From NCBI GenBank assembly GCA_019058295.1, contig JAHPZI010000010.1, positions 1-64,000 of the forward strand: DNA of 64,000 nt, in the 5' to 3' direction. The DNA is from Promethearchaeota archaeon. Lineage in GTDB: Archaea; Asgardarchaeota; Lokiarchaeia; Sigyniarchaeales; SOKP01. The translations under genes and the position numbers were made by a program. Under the pieces are notes generated by a model. It searched no databases and had not been told where the DNA came from. It saw nothing but the letters and a program-made list of their open reading frames with translations. Shown here one piece after another: positions 28,097-38,708 of this stretch; within the stretch, counting starts at the first letter, position 1, and every line of letters starts with the position of its first letter.

Positions 28097-28402
28097 CTAC
28101 ATTAATTCAATTTCCACTAATACAGATTCCGGAATTTGAATTTTCATAATAAGATGCATCGATTTCTCATCTGTAATAATTTCGAAAAGGCGTTTATGAA
28201 TCCTCATTTCATATTTAGCCCAAGTTGCTGTTCCTTGGCCAGAGGGCGCTTTTAAAACGGGAACTCTCAGTCTTTTCGTAGGAAGAGGTATTGGCCCGTA
28301 TTTTTTAATACCAGTTTTTTTACAAACATTTTCGAGCTGTTCGCAAACGGACTTTAGAGCTTCTAATCTGGTCGATGATAAACGTATGCGAGCTTTTTGT
28401 AT
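28097..28402 (-). CDS. rps10: 30S ribosomal protein S10 (uS10), ATA start
   Basis: Missed by track; (M)QKARIRLSS...GPIPLPTKRLRVPVLKAPSGQGTATWAKYEMRIHKRL...VEIEL; GGTGA SD 7 nt upstream of ATA, with no ATG/GTG/TTG before an in-frame TAA. Confidence 0.95.
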   Translation of the reverse strand: MQKARIRLSSTRLEALKSVCEQLENVCKKTGIKKYGPIPLPTKRLRVPVLKAPSGQGTATWAKYEMRIHKRLFEIITDEKSMHLIMKIQIPESVLVEIELM

Positions 28403-28674: not shown

Positions 28675-30357
28675 TTATTTCAATCTTTTTTTTTTATAAT
28701 AACCTTTTATTTGGGAGTAAACAATAATAGCTAGACTCCCAAGTATTGGATATACAAATAAAAAAGTGACAGGTTTTAAAATATAGTTAAGAACTATAGC
28801 ATCAAGATCATAATCAATTTTAAAATCAAAATCATCATCATCGTCATCGCCCGTGCTTGGAATTTGACAAGCACAACCAAATTTAAATCTCCAGAGGTCA
28901 TTCAAATAGTCCTCCGCACCTTTTTGGGCATAACCATACCCTCCGAACAACCAAAAAATTCCGTCCGTATCCGTCCAAGAAACAGAACTCCCTCTAGCTC
29001 CCGGATAATTCGCGCAATTAGGAACTCTCATCGCGCCATATACGCCATATTCATCTGTTTTTTTACTCCCTGACATCCATGCCCACTCCTTTGAGGTGAT
29101 GTTAAATCTCCAGAGGTCATTCAGTACCCCATAACTACCTGATCCGTCATAACCACCACCTCCGAATAACCATAAATTTCCATCTATATCCATCCAAGAA
29201 ACAGAACTGGTTCTACTTCCTGGAAAATTCGCCATATCAGGAACTCCCTTCGTGCCATATACACCAATTTGAATGGGGAAGTTACTCCCTGACATCCACG
29301 CCCACTCATTTGAGGTGATGTTAAATCTCCAGAGGTCATTCAGCCGCCCAACCGAAATTGATTCGGCATAACCATAACCTCCGAATAACCATAAACTTCC
29401 ATTCTTATCCGTCCAAGAAACAGAACTATATCTAGCTCCCGGATAATTCGCCATATCAGGAACTCCCTTCGTGCCAGATACTCCAATTTGATTTAGGATA
29501 TTATTCCCTGACATCCACGCCCACTCCTTTGAGGTGATGTTAAATCTCCAAAGGTCATTCAGCCTCCCCCAACTACCTGATCCAGCACGACCATACCCTC
29601 CGAATAACCATAAATTTCCGTCCGTATCCGTCCAAGAAACAGAACTGTATCTAGCTCCCGGATAATTCGCAATATCAGGATCTCTCATCGCGCCATATAC
29701 GCCATATTCATCATCGGTTTTATTCCCTGACATCCACGCCCACTCCTTTGAGGTGATATTAAATCTCCAGAGGTCATTTAGTATCCCATAACTACCTGAT
29801 CCGTCATAACCATACCCTCCGAATAACCATAAATTTCCGTCCGTATCCGTCCAAGAAACAGACCCCCATCTAGATCCCGGATAATTCGCTATATGAGAAA
29901 CTCCCTTCGTGCCATAGACGCCATTTTGATCTATGGTTTTAGCCCCTGACATCCACGTCCACTCCTTTAAAGTGATATTAAATCTCCAGAGGTCATTCAA
30001 CGACCCAGAAAAACCTGATTCGGCATAACCTCCACCTCCGAATAACCATAAATTTCCATCTTTATCCGTCCAAGAAACAGAACCGCTTCTAGCTCCTGGA
30101 AAACTCGCCACATTAGGAACTCCTTTCGTGCCATATACGCCATATTTAGCTGTGTTTTTACTTCCTGATATCCATATCCCACAATAGGTCCCTCCATTAG
30201 ATGATGATGTGCTTAAGGAGCCTGCTTTCTTGGACCCTGTGGCGACATCAGCAGAGAAAGGTGTTGAGGTGTTTGATGCTGTTATTACCATGAGGCATAA
30301 GACAATGACAAAAGTTATGTCAATTACTTTATTTTTATTTTTATTTAAGCTAAACAT
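28675..30357 (-). CDS. Secreted membrane-anchored kelch/galactose-oxidase-like beta-propeller protein
   Basis: Signal peptide, six PG(A/S)R..SVSW.D.DG.LWLFGG...LNDLWRF repeats, GDDDDDD linker, C-terminal TM and basic tail. Confidence 0.9.
   Translation of the reverse strand: MFSLNKNKNKVIDITFVIVLCLMVITASNTSTPFSADVATGSKKAGSLSTSSSNGGTYCGIWISGSKNTAKYGVYGTKGVPNVASFPGARSGSVSWTDKDGNLWLFGGGGYAESGFSGSLNDLWRFNITLKEWTWMSGAKTIDQNGVYGTKGVSHIANYPGSRWGSVSWTDTDGNLWLFGGYGYDGSGSYGILNDLWRFNITSKEWAWMSGNKTDDEYGVYGAMRDPDIANYPGARYSSVSWTDTDGNLWLFGGYGRAGSGSWGRLNDLWRFNITSKEWAWMSGNNILNQIGVSGTKGVPDMANYPGARYSSVSWTDKNGSLWLFGGYGYAESISVGRLNDLWRFNITSNEWAWMSGSNFPIQIGVYGTKGVPDMANFPGSRTSSVSWMDIDGNLWLFGGGGYDGSGSYGVLNDLWRFNITSKEWAWMSGSKKTDEYGVYGAMRVPNCANYPGARGSSVSWTDTDGIFWLFGGYGYAQKGAEDYLNDLWRFKFGCACQIPSTGDDDDDDFDFKIDYDLDAIVLNYILKPVTFLFVYPILGSLAIIVYSQIKGYYKKKRLK
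28880..30180 (-). repeat. Six tandem ~219-nt (73-codon) intragenic repeats with high nucleotide identity
   Basis: Variants of aaatctccagaggtcattca recur about every 219 nt; GC higher than the flanks. Confidence 0.9.
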
Positions 30358-32778: not shown

Positions 32779-33909
32779 TCAAGAAAATCCTAAAAGAAAT
32801 TTATTGCCAAGATTTACCTTTTCTAAATATTTCTGAGCAACTTCTAAACATTTCATCGCTTGTTTTCTTGGAGTTATTGGTAAATCTCTCATTTGATAAT
32901 CCCCATGAAATATCAATAGACTGTAGGGAATTTTAGGATTTATTTCTCTAATGAATTTTGCTATGTGCTCTACTTCTTCGTGATTAGTATAACCAGGTAC
33001 CATTAATGTACACCCGCTCATTTCCGGCATATTATCCTTTCTTGTGCCAAAATAATTTTCTGCTAAGAATTTGAAATTTTCAAGAGTTCTGCTATTGCTA
33101 ATGCCGCACAATGCTAAGTTTAATTTCTTATTGAAGCTTTTTAAGTCAAATTTGATGTTTCCGCCACTTTTGATTGCAATTTCCATACATTTCTCAACTA
33201 AATCGCGCCTTCCGCTTCCGTTCCATTCCCAACATATACGCATGATTCTATCTTTCTCTATTTTTTCTAATATTAATTCTGCTAAATTAATTGAAAAAGG
33301 CAACTGCGACTCGGGGGTTCCTCCAAAATAGCATAAACAAGTTATTTTTTCGTTCTTTACAATTTGATTTGCTAAAAACTCGGCTTCAAATAAGTGCTTT
33401 TTTGAAAAATTTTTATGAGACGAGTTTTGGCAGAACAAACAGTCAAAAGTGCAGCCGTACAAAAAAGCAGCATAGCTGTATGTTCCATATTCAGGACCTT
33501 TATAATTTGAATATTCAGGATAGCCGCTTGAACTTCCCGCAGGACAAAACCATGAATTACAGCAGTTTGTTGGATTTGCATCTATATATCCGTGAATATA
33601 ACCTTTTGATTTTGAGGGGTAAGGTAATTCTCCTGTCTCTTTTTTTTGGATATTTCTTAATCCACAATAACTTGTATCATCCGCAGAAAGACGACATTCA
33701 TTAATACAAAAATTACACTTTAATTTGACATTTCTTTCTACTTTTGGAGGATCTGACGGTAGATCTACAAGTTTTCGAACTTCGGTGTGAACTGAGTGTA
33801 AGTGAGGTTTAATTATATCCCAATCTCCATTAATAATACAATCTCTACATACTTGGAGCACTTGAGATATTAGTTTATCTTTTTTTCCACAAAATTTGCA
33901 TGTTCCCAT
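32779..33909 (-). CDS. Radical SAM protein (PFL-activating enzyme / AmmeMemoRadiSam-like)
   Basis: CTFDCLFCQN motif, extra N-terminal CxxC clusters, FGGTPE, FDLK, VPG. Confidence 0.88.
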   Translation of the reverse strand: MGTCKFCGKKDKLISQVLQVCRDCIINGDWDIIKPHLHSVHTEVRKLVDLPSDPPKVERNVKLKCNFCINECRLSADDTSYCGLRNIQKKETGELPYPSKSKGYIHGYIDANPTNCCNSWFCPAGSSSGYPEYSNYKGPEYGTYSYAAFLYGCTFDCLFCQNSSHKNFSKKHLFEAEFLANQIVKNEKITCLCYFGGTPESQLPFSINLAELILEKIEKDRIMRICWEWNGSGRRDLVEKCMEIAIKSGGNIKFDLKSFNKKLNLALCGISNSRTLENFKFLAENYFGTRKDNMPEMSGCTLMVPGYTNHEEVEHIAKFIREINPKIPYSLLIFHGDYQMRDLPITPRKQAMKCLEVAQKYLEKVNLGNKFLLGFS

Positions 33910-33912
33910 TTT

Positions 33913-34557
33913 TTATCGTTTTTTCTTTAGAAGTAAATAAGTTTGACCTGATTTTTGTTTAGGATTATTTTTTATCATAAAACCATCAAAACCGTTATAT
34001 TTAAACGAATCAGTGAACAGTTCCAACTCTTCATCATTTTCAGGATAAAATTCTATTATTACTCGACCATTTTTTTTCAAAATTTTATTCAAATAGTTTG
34101 CTGTATTTTTAACAACTTTCTTTTTTTCCCTGCCATATTTCTCATAGGTGATGAAGTTATAAGATGAGATTGAAAGAATATGATCAATTGAATTGTATTT
34201 AATAGGTAAATGATTAATATCTGCGAGAATTAAATCCAAATTACTAATCTTGAGGTTTTTTCTCTTTGCATTTGCTTTTATAAGCATATCGCTCAAAATA
34301 TCCACTCCTACTACTCTAAAACCACTTGAAATTATCATCTCCGATGAAAATCCGGTTCCACACCCTAGGTCTAAAATTAAATATGGAAAATTTTTAAGAA
34401 TATTATTATTATCTTCTCCTAATTCCTTATCGAAAAGATATTGAATACATTTAAATGTGGTCCTTTTTTGATTTCGTTCCATCCATTTTTGATTCTCATA
34501 TTCTTCAGCTTTCGAACCAATATAATCATATGGAAATTCTGGAATTTTCATGATCAT
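33913..34557 (-). CDS. Class I SAM methyltransferase, Bud23/WBSCR22-like
   Basis: LDLGCGTG, GVDI...ML, SISS, GRVIIEFYPENDEELEL...GF.G. Confidence 0.85.
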   Translation of the reverse strand: MIMKIPEFPYDYIGSKAEEYENQKWMERNQKRTTFKCIQYLFDKELGEDNNNILKNFPYLILDLGCGTGFSSEMIISSGFRVVGVDILSDMLIKANAKRKNLKISNLDLILADINHLPIKYNSIDHILSISSYNFITYEKYGREKKKVVKNTANYLNKILKKNGRVIIEFYPENDEELELFTDSFKYNGFDGFMIKNNPKQKSGQTYLLLKKKR

Positions 34558-34694
34558 TAGATTGATTTTTTCGTTCTATCGAAACTCTCATTTATAAACA
34601 ACAAAATTATTAAAATAGAAAAACTCACTATTTAAAAATAAGTTTTACTATTATAATTATGCTTTAAAACAAAAGATAAATTATAAAACCAAAA

Positions 34695-35075
34695 ATGTCT
34701 GCAAAAAATACAATTCTCATCGTAGATGATGAGCCAGATATTGTAAACTTAACAGAAAAGTTCCTTAAATTGGGGGATTTTGAAACTTTGACATGTGCCA
34801 ATGGACGCGATGCATTGGAAATCATTGAAGAAAAATATGATGAAATTGCCCTTGTTTTATTAGACATTATGATGCCCGGGACATCGGGATACTCTGTACT
34901 TCAGAGGATTAAGGAGAATGATAAATATAAGGATATCTTAGTGATCTTATTTACAGTGAAGAGTTTCAATGAAGACATTCAAAAGGGAAAAAAATTGGGG
35001 GCAGATGGTTATTTAACTAAACCTTTTAGTGGCAAAGAACTATTAAAATATGTACAAGATAAATTGGCAAATTAA
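34695..35075 (+). CDS. Stand-alone response regulator receiver domain
   Basis: ILIVDDEP, LLDIMMPG, T, GADGYLTKPF. Confidence 0.95.
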   Translation: MSAKNTILIVDDEPDIVNLTEKFLKLGDFETLTCANGRDALEIIEEKYDEIALVLLDIMMPGTSGYSVLQRIKENDKYKDILVILFTVKSFNEDIQKGKKLGADGYLTKPFSGKELLKYVQDKLAN

Positions 35076-35079
35076 ATTC

Positions 35080-36279
35080 TTAGAAAAAAGGGCTTAAAAG
35101 ATCTTTCAAGATATACCAATAGATTAAAAACCCAATTAACATTATAATCAGCGTTTTTCTTATCATATGTGCCGAGTGAAAAGTTTTTGGTTTTCTCCCT
35201 TTTCGGTTCAATAATTTTGGGAATAGATCGTGATCATGAGGCTCTTTCTGATACCAATAAGCTGTTGATGACCAATCGTCTTTTCGATGATTATCATGAC
35301 CATGTTCAATAGATACTATGATTTTTTTATTAAAATATACTGGATCTTCAATATGGTATCTATAATAAGAGATTTTTCCCCACCAATTTAATCCACCTCC
35401 CTTTATCGTGCCATGATAAGGAGCAAAATACTTTTTATGCTGGGACCATGCTTGATTCACATAATCTTCCGTTCCAGTTCCATGAAGCGTTGGTAATCCC
35501 TTTTCAATGTCCTCGTCAATAAATATCATATCATCCCCCTCGCCTGGCCAGTTTGCAAACCATGGCATAAAGGTTTTATTATCAATATTTAAATGGCATC
35601 CCACATAATGTCCCTTGCCTTTTGCTTCGAGAATTTTATAATTGTATTTTAATGGTTCTTTATTTTTTCCAGAAGCCATAAATCTAATTGGTCTTAAAGT
35701 AGTAAATCTTTTCCCTGTCTCACTATCTCGCTTTTTAACTTTTGGTGGATTTTCTCGACGCCACTGTGCGTGAAATCTACCAAAATCCTTTTCATTTTCA
35801 AGTCCGTTCTCGAATATGTCGTAATCAATATAGTAATAAAGCTTAAACTTTGTAGGATTATCATTTTCAAGGGTAATTTTGTATCCCGATGAAAAGGGCA
35901 TTGGCCACCAACAATTAAAGCCTTTCCCTCTATGTGGGCTCATTTGAAGTGGTAAAGAAACAAAATTTTTATGTTTTGCGTGCCCTAAACCAAAAAAGTC
36001 ACCAAATGGTACTTCTACGCTTGGTTTGCCTTCAGGTTCTCCATCCCAATACATTCTTAGAATCGCATTACGTAGAGAACGTCTTGAAACACAAGCATAT
36101 GTGCACCAAATATGTTTTATACAGCCAGCTCCACTTATTTCTCCTAATACAGCAGTTTCACCCGATTTAATTATAATCCAATCTTTATTGCCTCCTTCCT
36201 TGTCGTGGCTTGATAATCTCCTTCTCTTAACAGAATCAGATCTGAGTTTGGCTATATCATCTAATTTTCCTAATTTCAT
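35080..36279 (-). CDS. DUF2961 / GH172 family glycoside hydrolase with C-terminal TM
   Basis: GAGCIKHIW, PSVEVPFGDFFG, WPMPF, GEGDD, GTGTEDY, YRYH..DP.YF, IEHGH. Confidence 0.9.
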   Translation of the reverse strand: MKLGKLDDIAKLRSDSVKRRRLSSHDKEGGNKDWIIIKSGETAVLGEISGAGCIKHIWCTYACVSRRSLRNAILRMYWDGEPEGKPSVEVPFGDFFGLGHAKHKNFVSLPLQMSPHRGKGFNCWWPMPFSSGYKITLENDNPTKFKLYYYIDYDIFENGLENEKDFGRFHAQWRRENPPKVKKRDSETGKRFTTLRPIRFMASGKNKEPLKYNYKILEAKGKGHYVGCHLNIDNKTFMPWFANWPGEGDDMIFIDEDIEKGLPTLHGTGTEDYVNQAWSQHKKYFAPYHGTIKGGGLNWWGKISYYRYHIEDPVYFNKKIIVSIEHGHDNHRKDDWSSTAYWYQKEPHDHDLFPKLLNRKGRKPKTFHSAHMIRKTLIIMLIGFLIYWYILKDLLSPFF

Positions 36280-36689: not shown

Positions 36690-38708
36690 ATGAAATCTAA
36701 AAAGAAGATAAAAACAATATTATTGGTTTTAGGAATATTTTGCGTGTTATCAACTATTAGCAGTTATAATTTTTACGACGATCAATTTAATAGTGAGGAA
36801 TTAGTGGAAGTTCGAGATGAAATTGATTTGAAAACTGCGGCAATTCAAGATATCAATATAACAACACCCGAAGAGATTATATACACAAGCCCGATGAGTG
36901 GATATTATCCCGCTACCTATGGATTCGAAAACGATCAAAACGGTCAAAATCCCACGGGATGGGTTTATAATTCAATTATAGGTGATGCTCATATTGTTGA
37001 AGATTTTAACGGTCATAATAAGGTCGCGAGAATCTTTGATAATAATGGAGCTTTTGAGTTTTGGGTGATAAATTATTTTAGTTCAAAATCTAATGGTACT
37101 GTTGAGTTTTGGTTATCTTCAAGGCAAGATGCTCAAGACGGTATTGCGGTAACTTTAAGAGATGGTGGAACTATAGGACCATTCATTGGAATAGATGATG
37201 GAGGATTTTATTATGATGAAGGTTCTGGTGCCACTTGGCTTTCCTTAAGTTATACTGCGGATTCATGGCATCATCATAGAATAACTTTTAATGGTGATAC
37301 TCAAAAATATAATTGGTCGATTGATAATGAGCTATTAGGCTTAAATATCGATTTTTTTAGTAGCATTAGTAGTATAAATGAGTTTCATATACATACGGGA
37401 CCTAATTGGGATTTTAGTAACCCAATAGGTCATTTTGACGCAGTGGGTTATTCTTGGGATGAGGATTATGAGATTGGAGATAATTTGTATGAAGGATTAC
37501 TGCTTAGCTTTGACCATGATATTACTCCAGATTGGTTACGTTATTCTTTAGACGGGCAAGCTAATAAAACCATTCTAGGAAATACTACAATTCCAATGCC
37601 AGCTGATGGGCCTCATACAATTCAGGTATTTGGCAACGAAACAGGAACAATTCATAAATCTGAGATTAGGAATTTTGTTGTTAGTATAATTAATATAATA
37701 ACTCCAGAGAATAAAAGATACACTAAACCTATGAGTGGATATTATCCAGCATCATATGGATTTGAAAGCGATGAGGATGGCATGGTACCATATAATTGGA
37801 CATCTTCTCAGGGTACTGTAGTAGATTCACTAGACGATCATAATAAAGTTTTAGAAATTGATAATACGGATAACAATATTTATTGGGCAGATAATACATT
37901 TGTGCAACAGGTAAATGGAACAATTGAATTTTGGTTAAATACAACTTTTACGGGCGGGGATCCGCAACGAATAAGGTTAATGGGAGATACTTCCACTATT
38001 GGTCCCGATTTTAGGATTATGAATGATGCTTGGCAGTATCGAGTTGTTAATACTTGGTATACTATGTATCAAAAAGATGGTATTACGCCGATGCTTATTT
38101 ACTCTGCTGATACATGGATGCATGTTAAAATTGAATTTGAATGTGGAAGCGTGGGATATAAAGGATTGTCACCAGATACTTATAGAGTTATAATAGATGG
38201 CAATTCCTCAGAGGATTTAGATTTTAGATATACCAGAAATTGGATAGATACATTTTCAGTATGGAGCGGAGGAACATTATCTACAATTTATCAAATTTAC
38301 ATAGATGCTGTTGGATATTCTTGGGATACAAATTATAATCTTGGAGATAATTCGAAAGAAGGATTATTAATTAGCTTTGATTGTGAAATACCATTGGATA
38401 ACATTGCTTATTCATTGGATGTTCAAGACTCTGTGCCAATTCTAGGAAATTTTACTATTCCAATGCCTTCAGATGGAACACATACAATTCAAGTCTTTGG
38501 TGATGTCTATACTTCTCAGGTAAGACCTTTTATAGTTGGTAAATATTATCCTCCCCCTCCTCCGCCTGGTGATGACGATGACGATGACGATGAGGAAGAA
38601 ATTGAATTTTTGGTTTCCATTCTAATTATAGGTGGAATAAGTTTAGCTATTGGTGCTATTGCTGTCGCTGCTTATTTAATCAGGAAAAGGAGAATAGTTC
38701 GAGAATAA
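36690..38708 (+). CDS. Cell-surface protein with two tandem ConA/LamG-like + Ig-like units and a C-terminal membrane anchor
   Basis: Duplicated INIxTPE...PMSGYYPA.YGFE...GTxEFW...DAVGYSWD...GLL.SFD...HTIQVFG; PPPPPP-GDDDDDDDEEE-TM-RKRR. Confidence 0.85.
   Translation: MKSKKKIKTILLVLGIFCVLSTISSYNFYDDQFNSEELVEVRDEIDLKTAAIQDINITTPEEIIYTSPMSGYYPATYGFENDQNGQNPTGWVYNSIIGDAHIVEDFNGHNKVARIFDNNGAFEFWVINYFSSKSNGTVEFWLSSRQDAQDGIAVTLRDGGTIGPFIGIDDGGFYYDEGSGATWLSLSYTADSWHHHRITFNGDTQKYNWSIDNELLGLNIDFFSSISSINEFHIHTGPNWDFSNPIGHFDAVGYSWDEDYEIGDNLYEGLLLSFDHDITPDWLRYSLDGQANKTILGNTTIPMPADGPHTIQVFGNETGTIHKSEIRNFVVSIINIITPENKRYTKPMSGYYPASYGFESDEDGMVPYNWTSSQGTVVDSLDDHNKVLEIDNTDNNIYWADNTFVQQVNGTIEFWLNTTFTGGDPQRIRLMGDTSTIGPDFRIMNDAWQYRVVNTWYTMYQKDGITPMLIYSADTWMHVKIEFECGSVGYKGLSPDTYRVIIDGNSSEDLDFRYTRNWIDTFSVWSGGTLSTIYQIYIDAVGYSWDTNYNLGDNSKEGLLISFDCEIPLDNIAYSLDVQDSVPILGNFTIPMPSDGTHTIQVFGDVYTSQVRPFIVGKYYPPPPPPGDDDDDDDEEEIEFLVSILIIGGISLAIGAIAVAAYLIRKRRIVRE

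Follow-up and report, generated by a model that had tools for sequence, protein, structure and literature searches.

Whether the archaea contain an enzyme of the Bud23 type is the question raised by this locus. Bud23 in S. cerevisiae and BUD23/WBSCR22 in human act together with Trm112/TRMT112 as the 18S rRNA (guanine1575/1639-N7)-methyltransferase. It has been reported that archaea have no protein significantly similar to Bud23, none being present in H. volcanii, and according to the reviews of the Trm112 network the archaea also lack m7G at the equivalent position of the 16S rRNA (Bourgeois et al. 2017; van Tran et al. 2018; PMC5372719, PMC6144793). Bud23 'orthologs' were listed in all taxa, including bacteria, by Ebersberger et al. 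(2014), and these are probably generic methyltransferases. In the literature that we searched, we found no paper that mentions both Bud23 (or WBSCR22) and Asgard (or Lokiarchaeota). The window analysed here, a stretch of 64,000 nucleotides of an Asgard genome, carries a gene for which the original prediction had been a Bud23/WBSCR22-like small-subunit rRNA m7G methyltransferase. We have found that its product, MTase A, is a divergent member (group A) of a paralogue pair in Loki-type Asgard archaea. In what follows, group A is the clade of the methyltransferase of the window, group B is the clade of its paralogue on contig 18 of the same assembly (paralogue B), and group D comprises the sequences from Odin-like and DPANN genomes.

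The coordinates of the genes discussed are collected in Table 1. The radical SAM ORF starts 3 nt past the stop codon of MTase A, in agreement with the spacing originally given for the two genes. Both promoters of the divergent gene pair are presumed, from the gene arrangement only, to lie in the intergenic region. The sequencing runs that contain this stretch are DNA runs only, labelled as sediment metagenomes, and no RNA run is listed among the matching ones.

Table 1. Features of the locus and of the putative partner gene (coordinates are those of the window unless a contig is named)
Feature	Position	Strand	Basis and remarks
Group-A Bud23-family SAM methyltransferase gene (P0001, MTase A)	33913..34557	-	ORF, ATG start, TAA stop, 214 aa
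Radical SAM gene	32779..33909	-	376 aa; Pfam Radical_SAM and Fer4_12
Single-domain response regulator gene, divergent from MTase A	34695..35075	+	ORF; Response_reg Pfam on homologous neighbour
Intergenic region between MTase A and response regulator, 137 bp, AT-rich	34558..34694	.	Sequence
Ribosomal protein uS10 gene	28100..28402	-	tblastn with uS10 of a relative's locus (L011), 81% identity; Ribosomal_S10 Pfam on homologous neighbour
Trm112 homologue, 207 aa	contig 30, 58174-58794 (locus L007 1069-1689)		Pfam Trm112p 22.6 bits, cut-off 22

The uS10 gene of the window shares the strand of the MTase A-radical SAM pair and lies downstream of it, but inserted genes for secreted or membrane proteins, about 4.4 kb in all, stand between them. 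Large secreted or membrane-anchored repeat proteins are encoded at 28675-30357 (-) and 36690-38708 (+), between or near the conserved genes; one of the two is Kelch-like, with GxxxWxFGG repeats and a poly-Asp stretch, and in the other a duplicated module with PPPPPPGDDDDDDDEEE precedes a C-terminal TM helix. These genes seem to be insertions with respect to the compact MTase-radical SAM-uS10 order of the relatives. We also observed that the uS10 gene has no ATG, GTG or TTG start: the codon for the first residue of its conserved N-terminus (x-QKARIRL) is ATA, located 6 nt past GGTGAT, and in the homologue at locus L011 the start was called at the same Ile-codon position. On the other side of the locus, the response regulator gene is adjoined by a gene (35080-36279, -) for a 399-aa protein of no known family, which roughly one third of the related loci also have in this position, with 66-89% identity.

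Several comparisons place MTase A within the Bud23 family. When all PDB chains were searched with phmmer, MTase A matched yeast Bud23 with an E of 4.5e-17 and human BUD23 with an E of 1e-15, and the first chain other than Bud23 appeared at 5e-9. The motif matches to human WBSCR22 that had been noted from the sequence alone were reproduced in the HMMER alignments to both the human and the yeast protein, in which LDLGCGTGFS of MTase A pairs with LDIGCGTGLS, ILSISS with CISISA, EFYPENDEELEL with QLYPENSEQLEL and NGFDG with AGFSG, the alignment including the terminal YLLL strand. The likeness is far above chance. It extends to the fold: the AlphaFold model of MTase A, built with 30 homologues in the alignment, has a mean pLDDT of 88 and a pTM of 0.87, and in Foldseek its top eight matches are all Bud23 chains, from the yeast crystal and the human pre-40S cryo-EM structures, with an E of about 1e-17 and TM-scores of 0.67-0.86, the next structure following at 3.5e-12. 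Moreover, hhalign aligned group A to 16 eukaryotic Bud23 methyltransferase domains over 200 columns, from the N-terminal lid helix through the last strand, with a probability of 99.9%, an E of 1.3e-36 and a score of 235. The methyltransferase domains of Bud23 and MTase A agree in length and topology, and both have the N-terminal lid helix and a beta hairpin at the C-terminal end. Unlike Bud23, MTase A carries neither the basic C-terminal extension nor the RPE motif, and its helix alphaB is 8 residues longer. The lack of the extension had been predicted correctly, as MTase A ends after the last strand at residue 214, in comparison with 275-281 aa in eukaryotic Bud23, and gives no match to the Pfam WBS_methylT domain that corresponds to it. 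According to crystal structures determined without it, this extension is dispensable for Bud23 catalysis (PMC5372719).

The Pfam and NCBIfam searches returned only generic class I methyltransferase domains for MTase A (Methyltransf_31, Methyltransf_25 and Methyltransf_11) and no family-level name. A generic BioC/UbiE-type identity was considered and dropped, all of its matches being partial and far under the curated cut-offs. A grouping with generic Methyltransf_11 or BioC-like enzymes, the outcome that had been named beforehand as speaking against a Bud23 identity, was not seen with phmmer, Foldseek, hhalign or the phylogenetic tree described below. We therefore assign MTase A to the Bud23 family, and not to the generic Methyltransf_11/BioC group, with high confidence. 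The JGI automatic annotation of some of its relatives reads '18S rRNA (guanine1575-N7)-methyltransferase'.

The residues expected for binding SAM are intact in MTase A. Its motif I reads D63-x-G65-C-G67-x-G69, and D86 is the acidic residue of strand beta2; D113 is also present. G67 and D86 align with G63 and D82 of human BUD23, mutation of which abolishes the activity of the enzyme (PMC4472018), and both are invariant in the 30 members of the clade. These 30 members share 58-73% identity with MTase A and have 58 invariant columns. Such strong constraint on the clade and the intact SAM residues, taken together with the changes in the pocket motifs that are described below, suggest that MTase A is probably a catalytically competent enzyme with a remodelled pocket.

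As Bud23 works with Trm112, the genome was searched for this partner and a homologue was found (Table 1). Its N- and C-terminal Trm112 motifs are split by an insert of about 125 residues, and its PDB matches are weak (A. fulgidus Trm112, 0.002; human TRMT112, 0.13), but it is conserved over its full length in 26/26 genomes of the family. At 207 aa it is longer than the Trm112 proteins of archaea (60-80 aa) and of eukaryotes (about 125-135 aa); the insert separates its N-terminal strand from the CxxC knuckle near the other end, and the conserved C-terminal tail ends in LKPF. An eukaryote-like Trm112 has been reported in Heimdallarchaeia only (2026 preprint, PMC13734099). The complex was modelled with the 30-row alignment of MTase A, 19 rows for the Trm112 homologue and three controls. 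MTase A and the Trm112 homologue obtained a score of 0.93, the best of the three controls reaching 0.02, in a Bud23-Trm112 type of interface, although the pair from eukaryotes is already a solved complex, so that this score shows likeness and may reflect that known structure. Of 80 solved complexes, 58 attain the mark applied to the score, as against two of 110 mismatched pairs; the runs agreed in at least 98% of the contacts, with a partner pLDDT of at least 92. The modelled interface joins residues 108-113 (strand beta3) and 115-121 of MTase A with residues 166-173 and 8-13 of the Trm112 homologue, and the Bud23-Trm112 beta-zipper is an interface of the same type (PMC5372719). Like Hvo_0019 of Haloferax volcanii (PDB 6F5Z), a class I archaeal methyltransferase held by Trm112 (PMC6144793), MTase A would be expected to contact Trm112 by the same beta-zipper; Hvo_0019 itself is only a remote fold match to MTase A (Foldseek rank 41-50, 14% identity). 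MTase A is probably dependent on Trm112.

MTase A is one of two such proteins in its genome. When the assembly of the window (30 contigs, 79% complete) was searched for paralogues, a second copy was found on contig 18 (84918-85454), head-to-head with an eS25-like gene. Paralogue B is also a tail-less protein of 214 aa, with 32% identity to MTase A over the whole domain. It is nearer to Bud23 than MTase A on every measure: its E against yeast Bud23 is 4.4e-25, with residues 3-202 aligned, and hhalign against eukaryotic Bud23 gives an E of 5.7e-44 and a score of 279, compared to 235 for group A. A set of 16 eukaryotic Bud23 sequences has 54 columns with a conservation of 85% or more; 35 of these are retained in group B, 29 in group D, 27 in group A and 20 in the outgroup methyltransferases.

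Group A differs most sharply in the motifs that follow strands beta4 and beta5, which in class I methyltransferases line the substrate pocket. We take the Q-W and Q-F-Y-P motifs found after beta4 and beta5 to be pocket residues on the basis of class I motifs IV and VI and of their invariance, rather than of a cited mutant. Eukaryotic Bud23, group B and group D contain S-I-S-A-x-Q-W and Q-F-Y-P. These motifs occur in no member of group A, every one of which has S-I-S-S-Y-N-F and E-F-Y-P instead (S129-I-S131-S-Y-N134-F135 and E169-F-Y-P172 in MTase A). In addition, the helix after beta2 is about 8 residues longer in group A, and of the N-terminal lid segment R-P-E...Y...K-Y...I-Q, Y20 and Q30 are kept in MTase A while R-P-E is absent from core group A; the lid helix as such aligns with that of Bud23 in hhalign. 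Paralogue B, by contrast, keeps RPE, SISA-QW and QFYP. Because Q-W and Q-F-Y-P are swapped for N-F and E-F-Y-P throughout group A, the target nucleotide of MTase A, or the atom that it methylates, probably differs from the m7G site expected for paralogue B, to which m7G at the P-site ridge would more readily be ascribed. Thus, the original prediction was right about the family of MTase A, whereas the better m7G candidate in this organism is its paralogue, which is closer to Bud23 and has kept the pocket motifs.

We also explored the position of both groups by phylogeny. An exhaustive HMMER search over 1.84 billion representatives returned 1897 matches; among the best 150 of these nearly all are Bud23-like, and many are proteins of 255-330 aa that carry, as in eukaryotes, RPE near the N-terminus and a Y-T-G-R-K-R tail at the other end. 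An IQ-TREE analysis (LG+C20+F+G4) was carried out on 59 rows and 205 columns, with 53 Bud23-like sequences and, as a small sample of outgroup, six other methyltransferases. The Bud23-like set was split from these outgroup methyltransferases with supports of 98/96, and the eukaryotes (100/95) and group A (15 rows, 100/99) were each recovered. Group A appeared with moderate support (87/85) as sister to group D, here represented by Odin-like genomes and by Woese- and Nanoarchaeia, and group B, joined by further DPANN and unlabelled metagenomic sequences, was not recovered as a single clade in this tree. None of the arrangements compared by AU tests was rejected: eukaryotes with B (p 0.31), eukaryotes with A (p 0.32), A branching off first, beside the outgroup (p 0.36), and A with the Asgard B core, which was disfavoured (delta lnL 19.8, p 0.08). 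Neither archaeal group is placed as the sister of eukaryotic Bud23 by the tree or by these tests, and group A could be the earliest branch of the Bud23-like family. The phylogenetic check that had been proposed together with the original prediction therefore separates MTase A from generic methyltransferases and does not establish its orthology to Bud23.

We then ran a profile of all four groups against 151 Asgard genomes, which represent 27 GTDB families. Full-length Bud23-like genes, with an E of 1e-46 or better, were present in only 4/27 of the families: that of the window (25/25), its sister family in the same order (2/2), an Odin-like family (3/4) and one further family (1/1). The remaining matches are set apart by a clear gap, being partial generic methyltransferases with an E of 1e-25 or worse. 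The gene is single-copy in the Odin-like family, the genomes of which have 1.3-1.4 Mb, and the Bud23-like family is also found in DPANN. This patchy distribution in Asgard, together with the presence in DPANN, is not in favour of a straightforward vertical inheritance by eukaryotes. The closest relatives of MTase A (60-92% identity) are encoded in MAGs with the titles Promethearchaeota or Promethearchaeia, among them Loki_b32 and AMARA_1S; for others the labels given by the submitters are mixed (Hod-, Thor-, Odin- and Hermodarchaeota). Within the family of the window, A is present in 20/25 genomes and B in 22/25. The five genomes without A, which are 89-100% complete, all retain B; A is thus dispensable in these relatives.

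These results bear directly on the possibility that MTase A is itself the functional archaeal orthologue of Bud23, making m7G with Trm112 at the equivalent of yeast G1575 and E. coli G1338. Bud23 is indeed its top match in both sequence and fold, the AU test leaves a grouping of eukaryotes with group A standing, and the Trm112 interface model passes. As for the target, the assembly of the window contains no 16S rRNA gene, but the 16S rRNA of a genome of the same genus has the universal GGAATCCCTAGTAATCG segment with the equivalent of E. coli G1338. The presence of GGAATCCCTAGTAATCG fits this explanation and shows only that the canonical site exists. On the other hand, it is paralogue B that lies closer to Bud23 and keeps Q-W and Q-F-Y-P, B is the copy kept by the five genomes that have no A, and it would be uncommon for a single site to be served by two enzymes. 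We regard it as unlikely that MTase A is the m7G enzyme and prefer to see in it a Bud23-family methyltransferase with a target of its own.

The gene order offers some hints about this target. We compared 39 loci that contain a group-A gene in other genomes. The divergent response regulator occupies the same relative position in 39/39 of them, the radical SAM gene follows MTase A in all but two of those that have downstream sequence, and uS10 comes after the radical SAM gene in most, usually within 100-150 nt, so that the order RR<->A->rSAM->uS10 is conserved in most of these loci. The sister family shows eS25<->B->A->uS10 instead, with both paralogues in tandem and no radical SAM gene between A and uS10 (loci L128, contig 296 of genome G094, and L129, contig 60 of genome G089); the radical SAM gene of these organisms is on another contig or was not found. 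The tandem suggests an old duplication the halves of which were later separated in the family of the window, where B adjoins eS25 while MTase A stands between the response regulator and the radical SAM gene. To judge from these loci, eS25<->B->A->uS10 is likely to be the ancestral arrangement. The gene order thus links both paralogues to eS25 and uS10, which encode proteins of the head of the small subunit. MTase A is probably linked to the ribosome, although gene neighbourhood constitutes weak evidence for its substrate.

The adjacent radical SAM gene raises a different possibility, namely that both enzymes form a two-step pathway on a shared substrate other than rRNA, such as a tRNA base, uS10 or another protein, or a small molecule. 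The radical SAM protein has an N-terminal CxxC...CxxC ribbon, the motif C153xxxC157xxC160 and further invariant clusters of Cys; besides the CxxxCxxC motif, the conserved groups are C4/C7/C21/C24, C65/C68/C72/C82 and C116/C117/C122. Its NCBIfam matches are all sub-threshold, its PDB match, to PFL activase, is weak, and its AlphaFold model is poor (pLDDT 59.5). It belongs to an uncharacterised archaeal family found in Asgard, Bathyarchaeota and Nitrososphaerota, with 63-83% identity within the family of the window and 33-50% outside it. The gap of 3 nt and the adjacency to nearly all the group-A loci of the window's family would agree with a common pathway, as would the co-occurrence in that family, in which 18 genomes have both genes, two have A only, five have neither and none has the radical SAM gene only. 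However, the joint absence of two neighbouring genes can be the result of a single deletion, and in the sister family A adjoins B and uS10 with no radical SAM gene there. Furthermore, the radical SAM family is present in 116/151 Asgard genomes, most of them without any Bud23-like gene, and being far commoner than group A its adjacency to MTase A may be incidental. A shared pathway of this kind seems to us quite unlikely. Finally, that MTase A could be a generic small-molecule or protein methyltransferase that resembles Bud23 and has no role in translation is very improbable, since the generic Pfam and NCBIfam domains that are the only significant ones, the pocket residues unlike those of Bud23 and the dispensability of A in some relatives have to be set against a full-length homology that includes the Bud23-specific N-terminal lid helix and C-terminal strands, the 98/96 split from generic methyltransferases, the conserved linkage to uS10 (and to B and eS25 in the sister family) and the high conservation of group A.

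The explanation that we favour is that MTase A is a competent group-A enzyme of the Bud23 type, without tail, which is activated by Trm112 and acts on a target unlike that of paralogue B. According to this, the Rossmann domain would bind SAM by means of motif I and D86, and strand beta3 (108-113) would pair with the C-terminal strand of the long-insert Trm112 homologue, an interaction that could stabilise and activate MTase A as it occurs in Bud23-Trm112. The enzyme would then methylate a base in the translation machinery, with the rRNA of the small-subunit head as the likeliest place. We consider this mechanism as a whole to be moderately probable.

The finding of two full-length Bud23-like genes and a Trm112 homologue in a Loki-type Asgard genome contrasts with the reviews that deny a Bud23 to archaea, and it leads to the prediction that the 16S rRNA of Asgard archaea bears one or two additional methylated bases. 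It also bears on how much of the maturation of the eukaryotic 40S subunit predates the eukaryotes, a conclusion that is tempered by the patchy spread of the family and by the unsettled sister group of eukaryotic Bud23. A more ambitious proposal, which we put forward as tentative and less probable than the mechanism above, is that the small-subunit head receives two distinct marks of the Bud23 type, made by B and A, ancestrally encoded in tandem between eS25 and uS10, with the long-insert Trm112 as their common hub. If this were true, group A would represent a new rRNA modification enzyme with a new site, neither of them having a counterpart in eukaryotes or bacteria, and the B/A pair would stand as the archaeal precursor of the 40S maturation step that Bud23-Trm112 performs in eukaryotes, precisely the step that the reviews deny to archaea.
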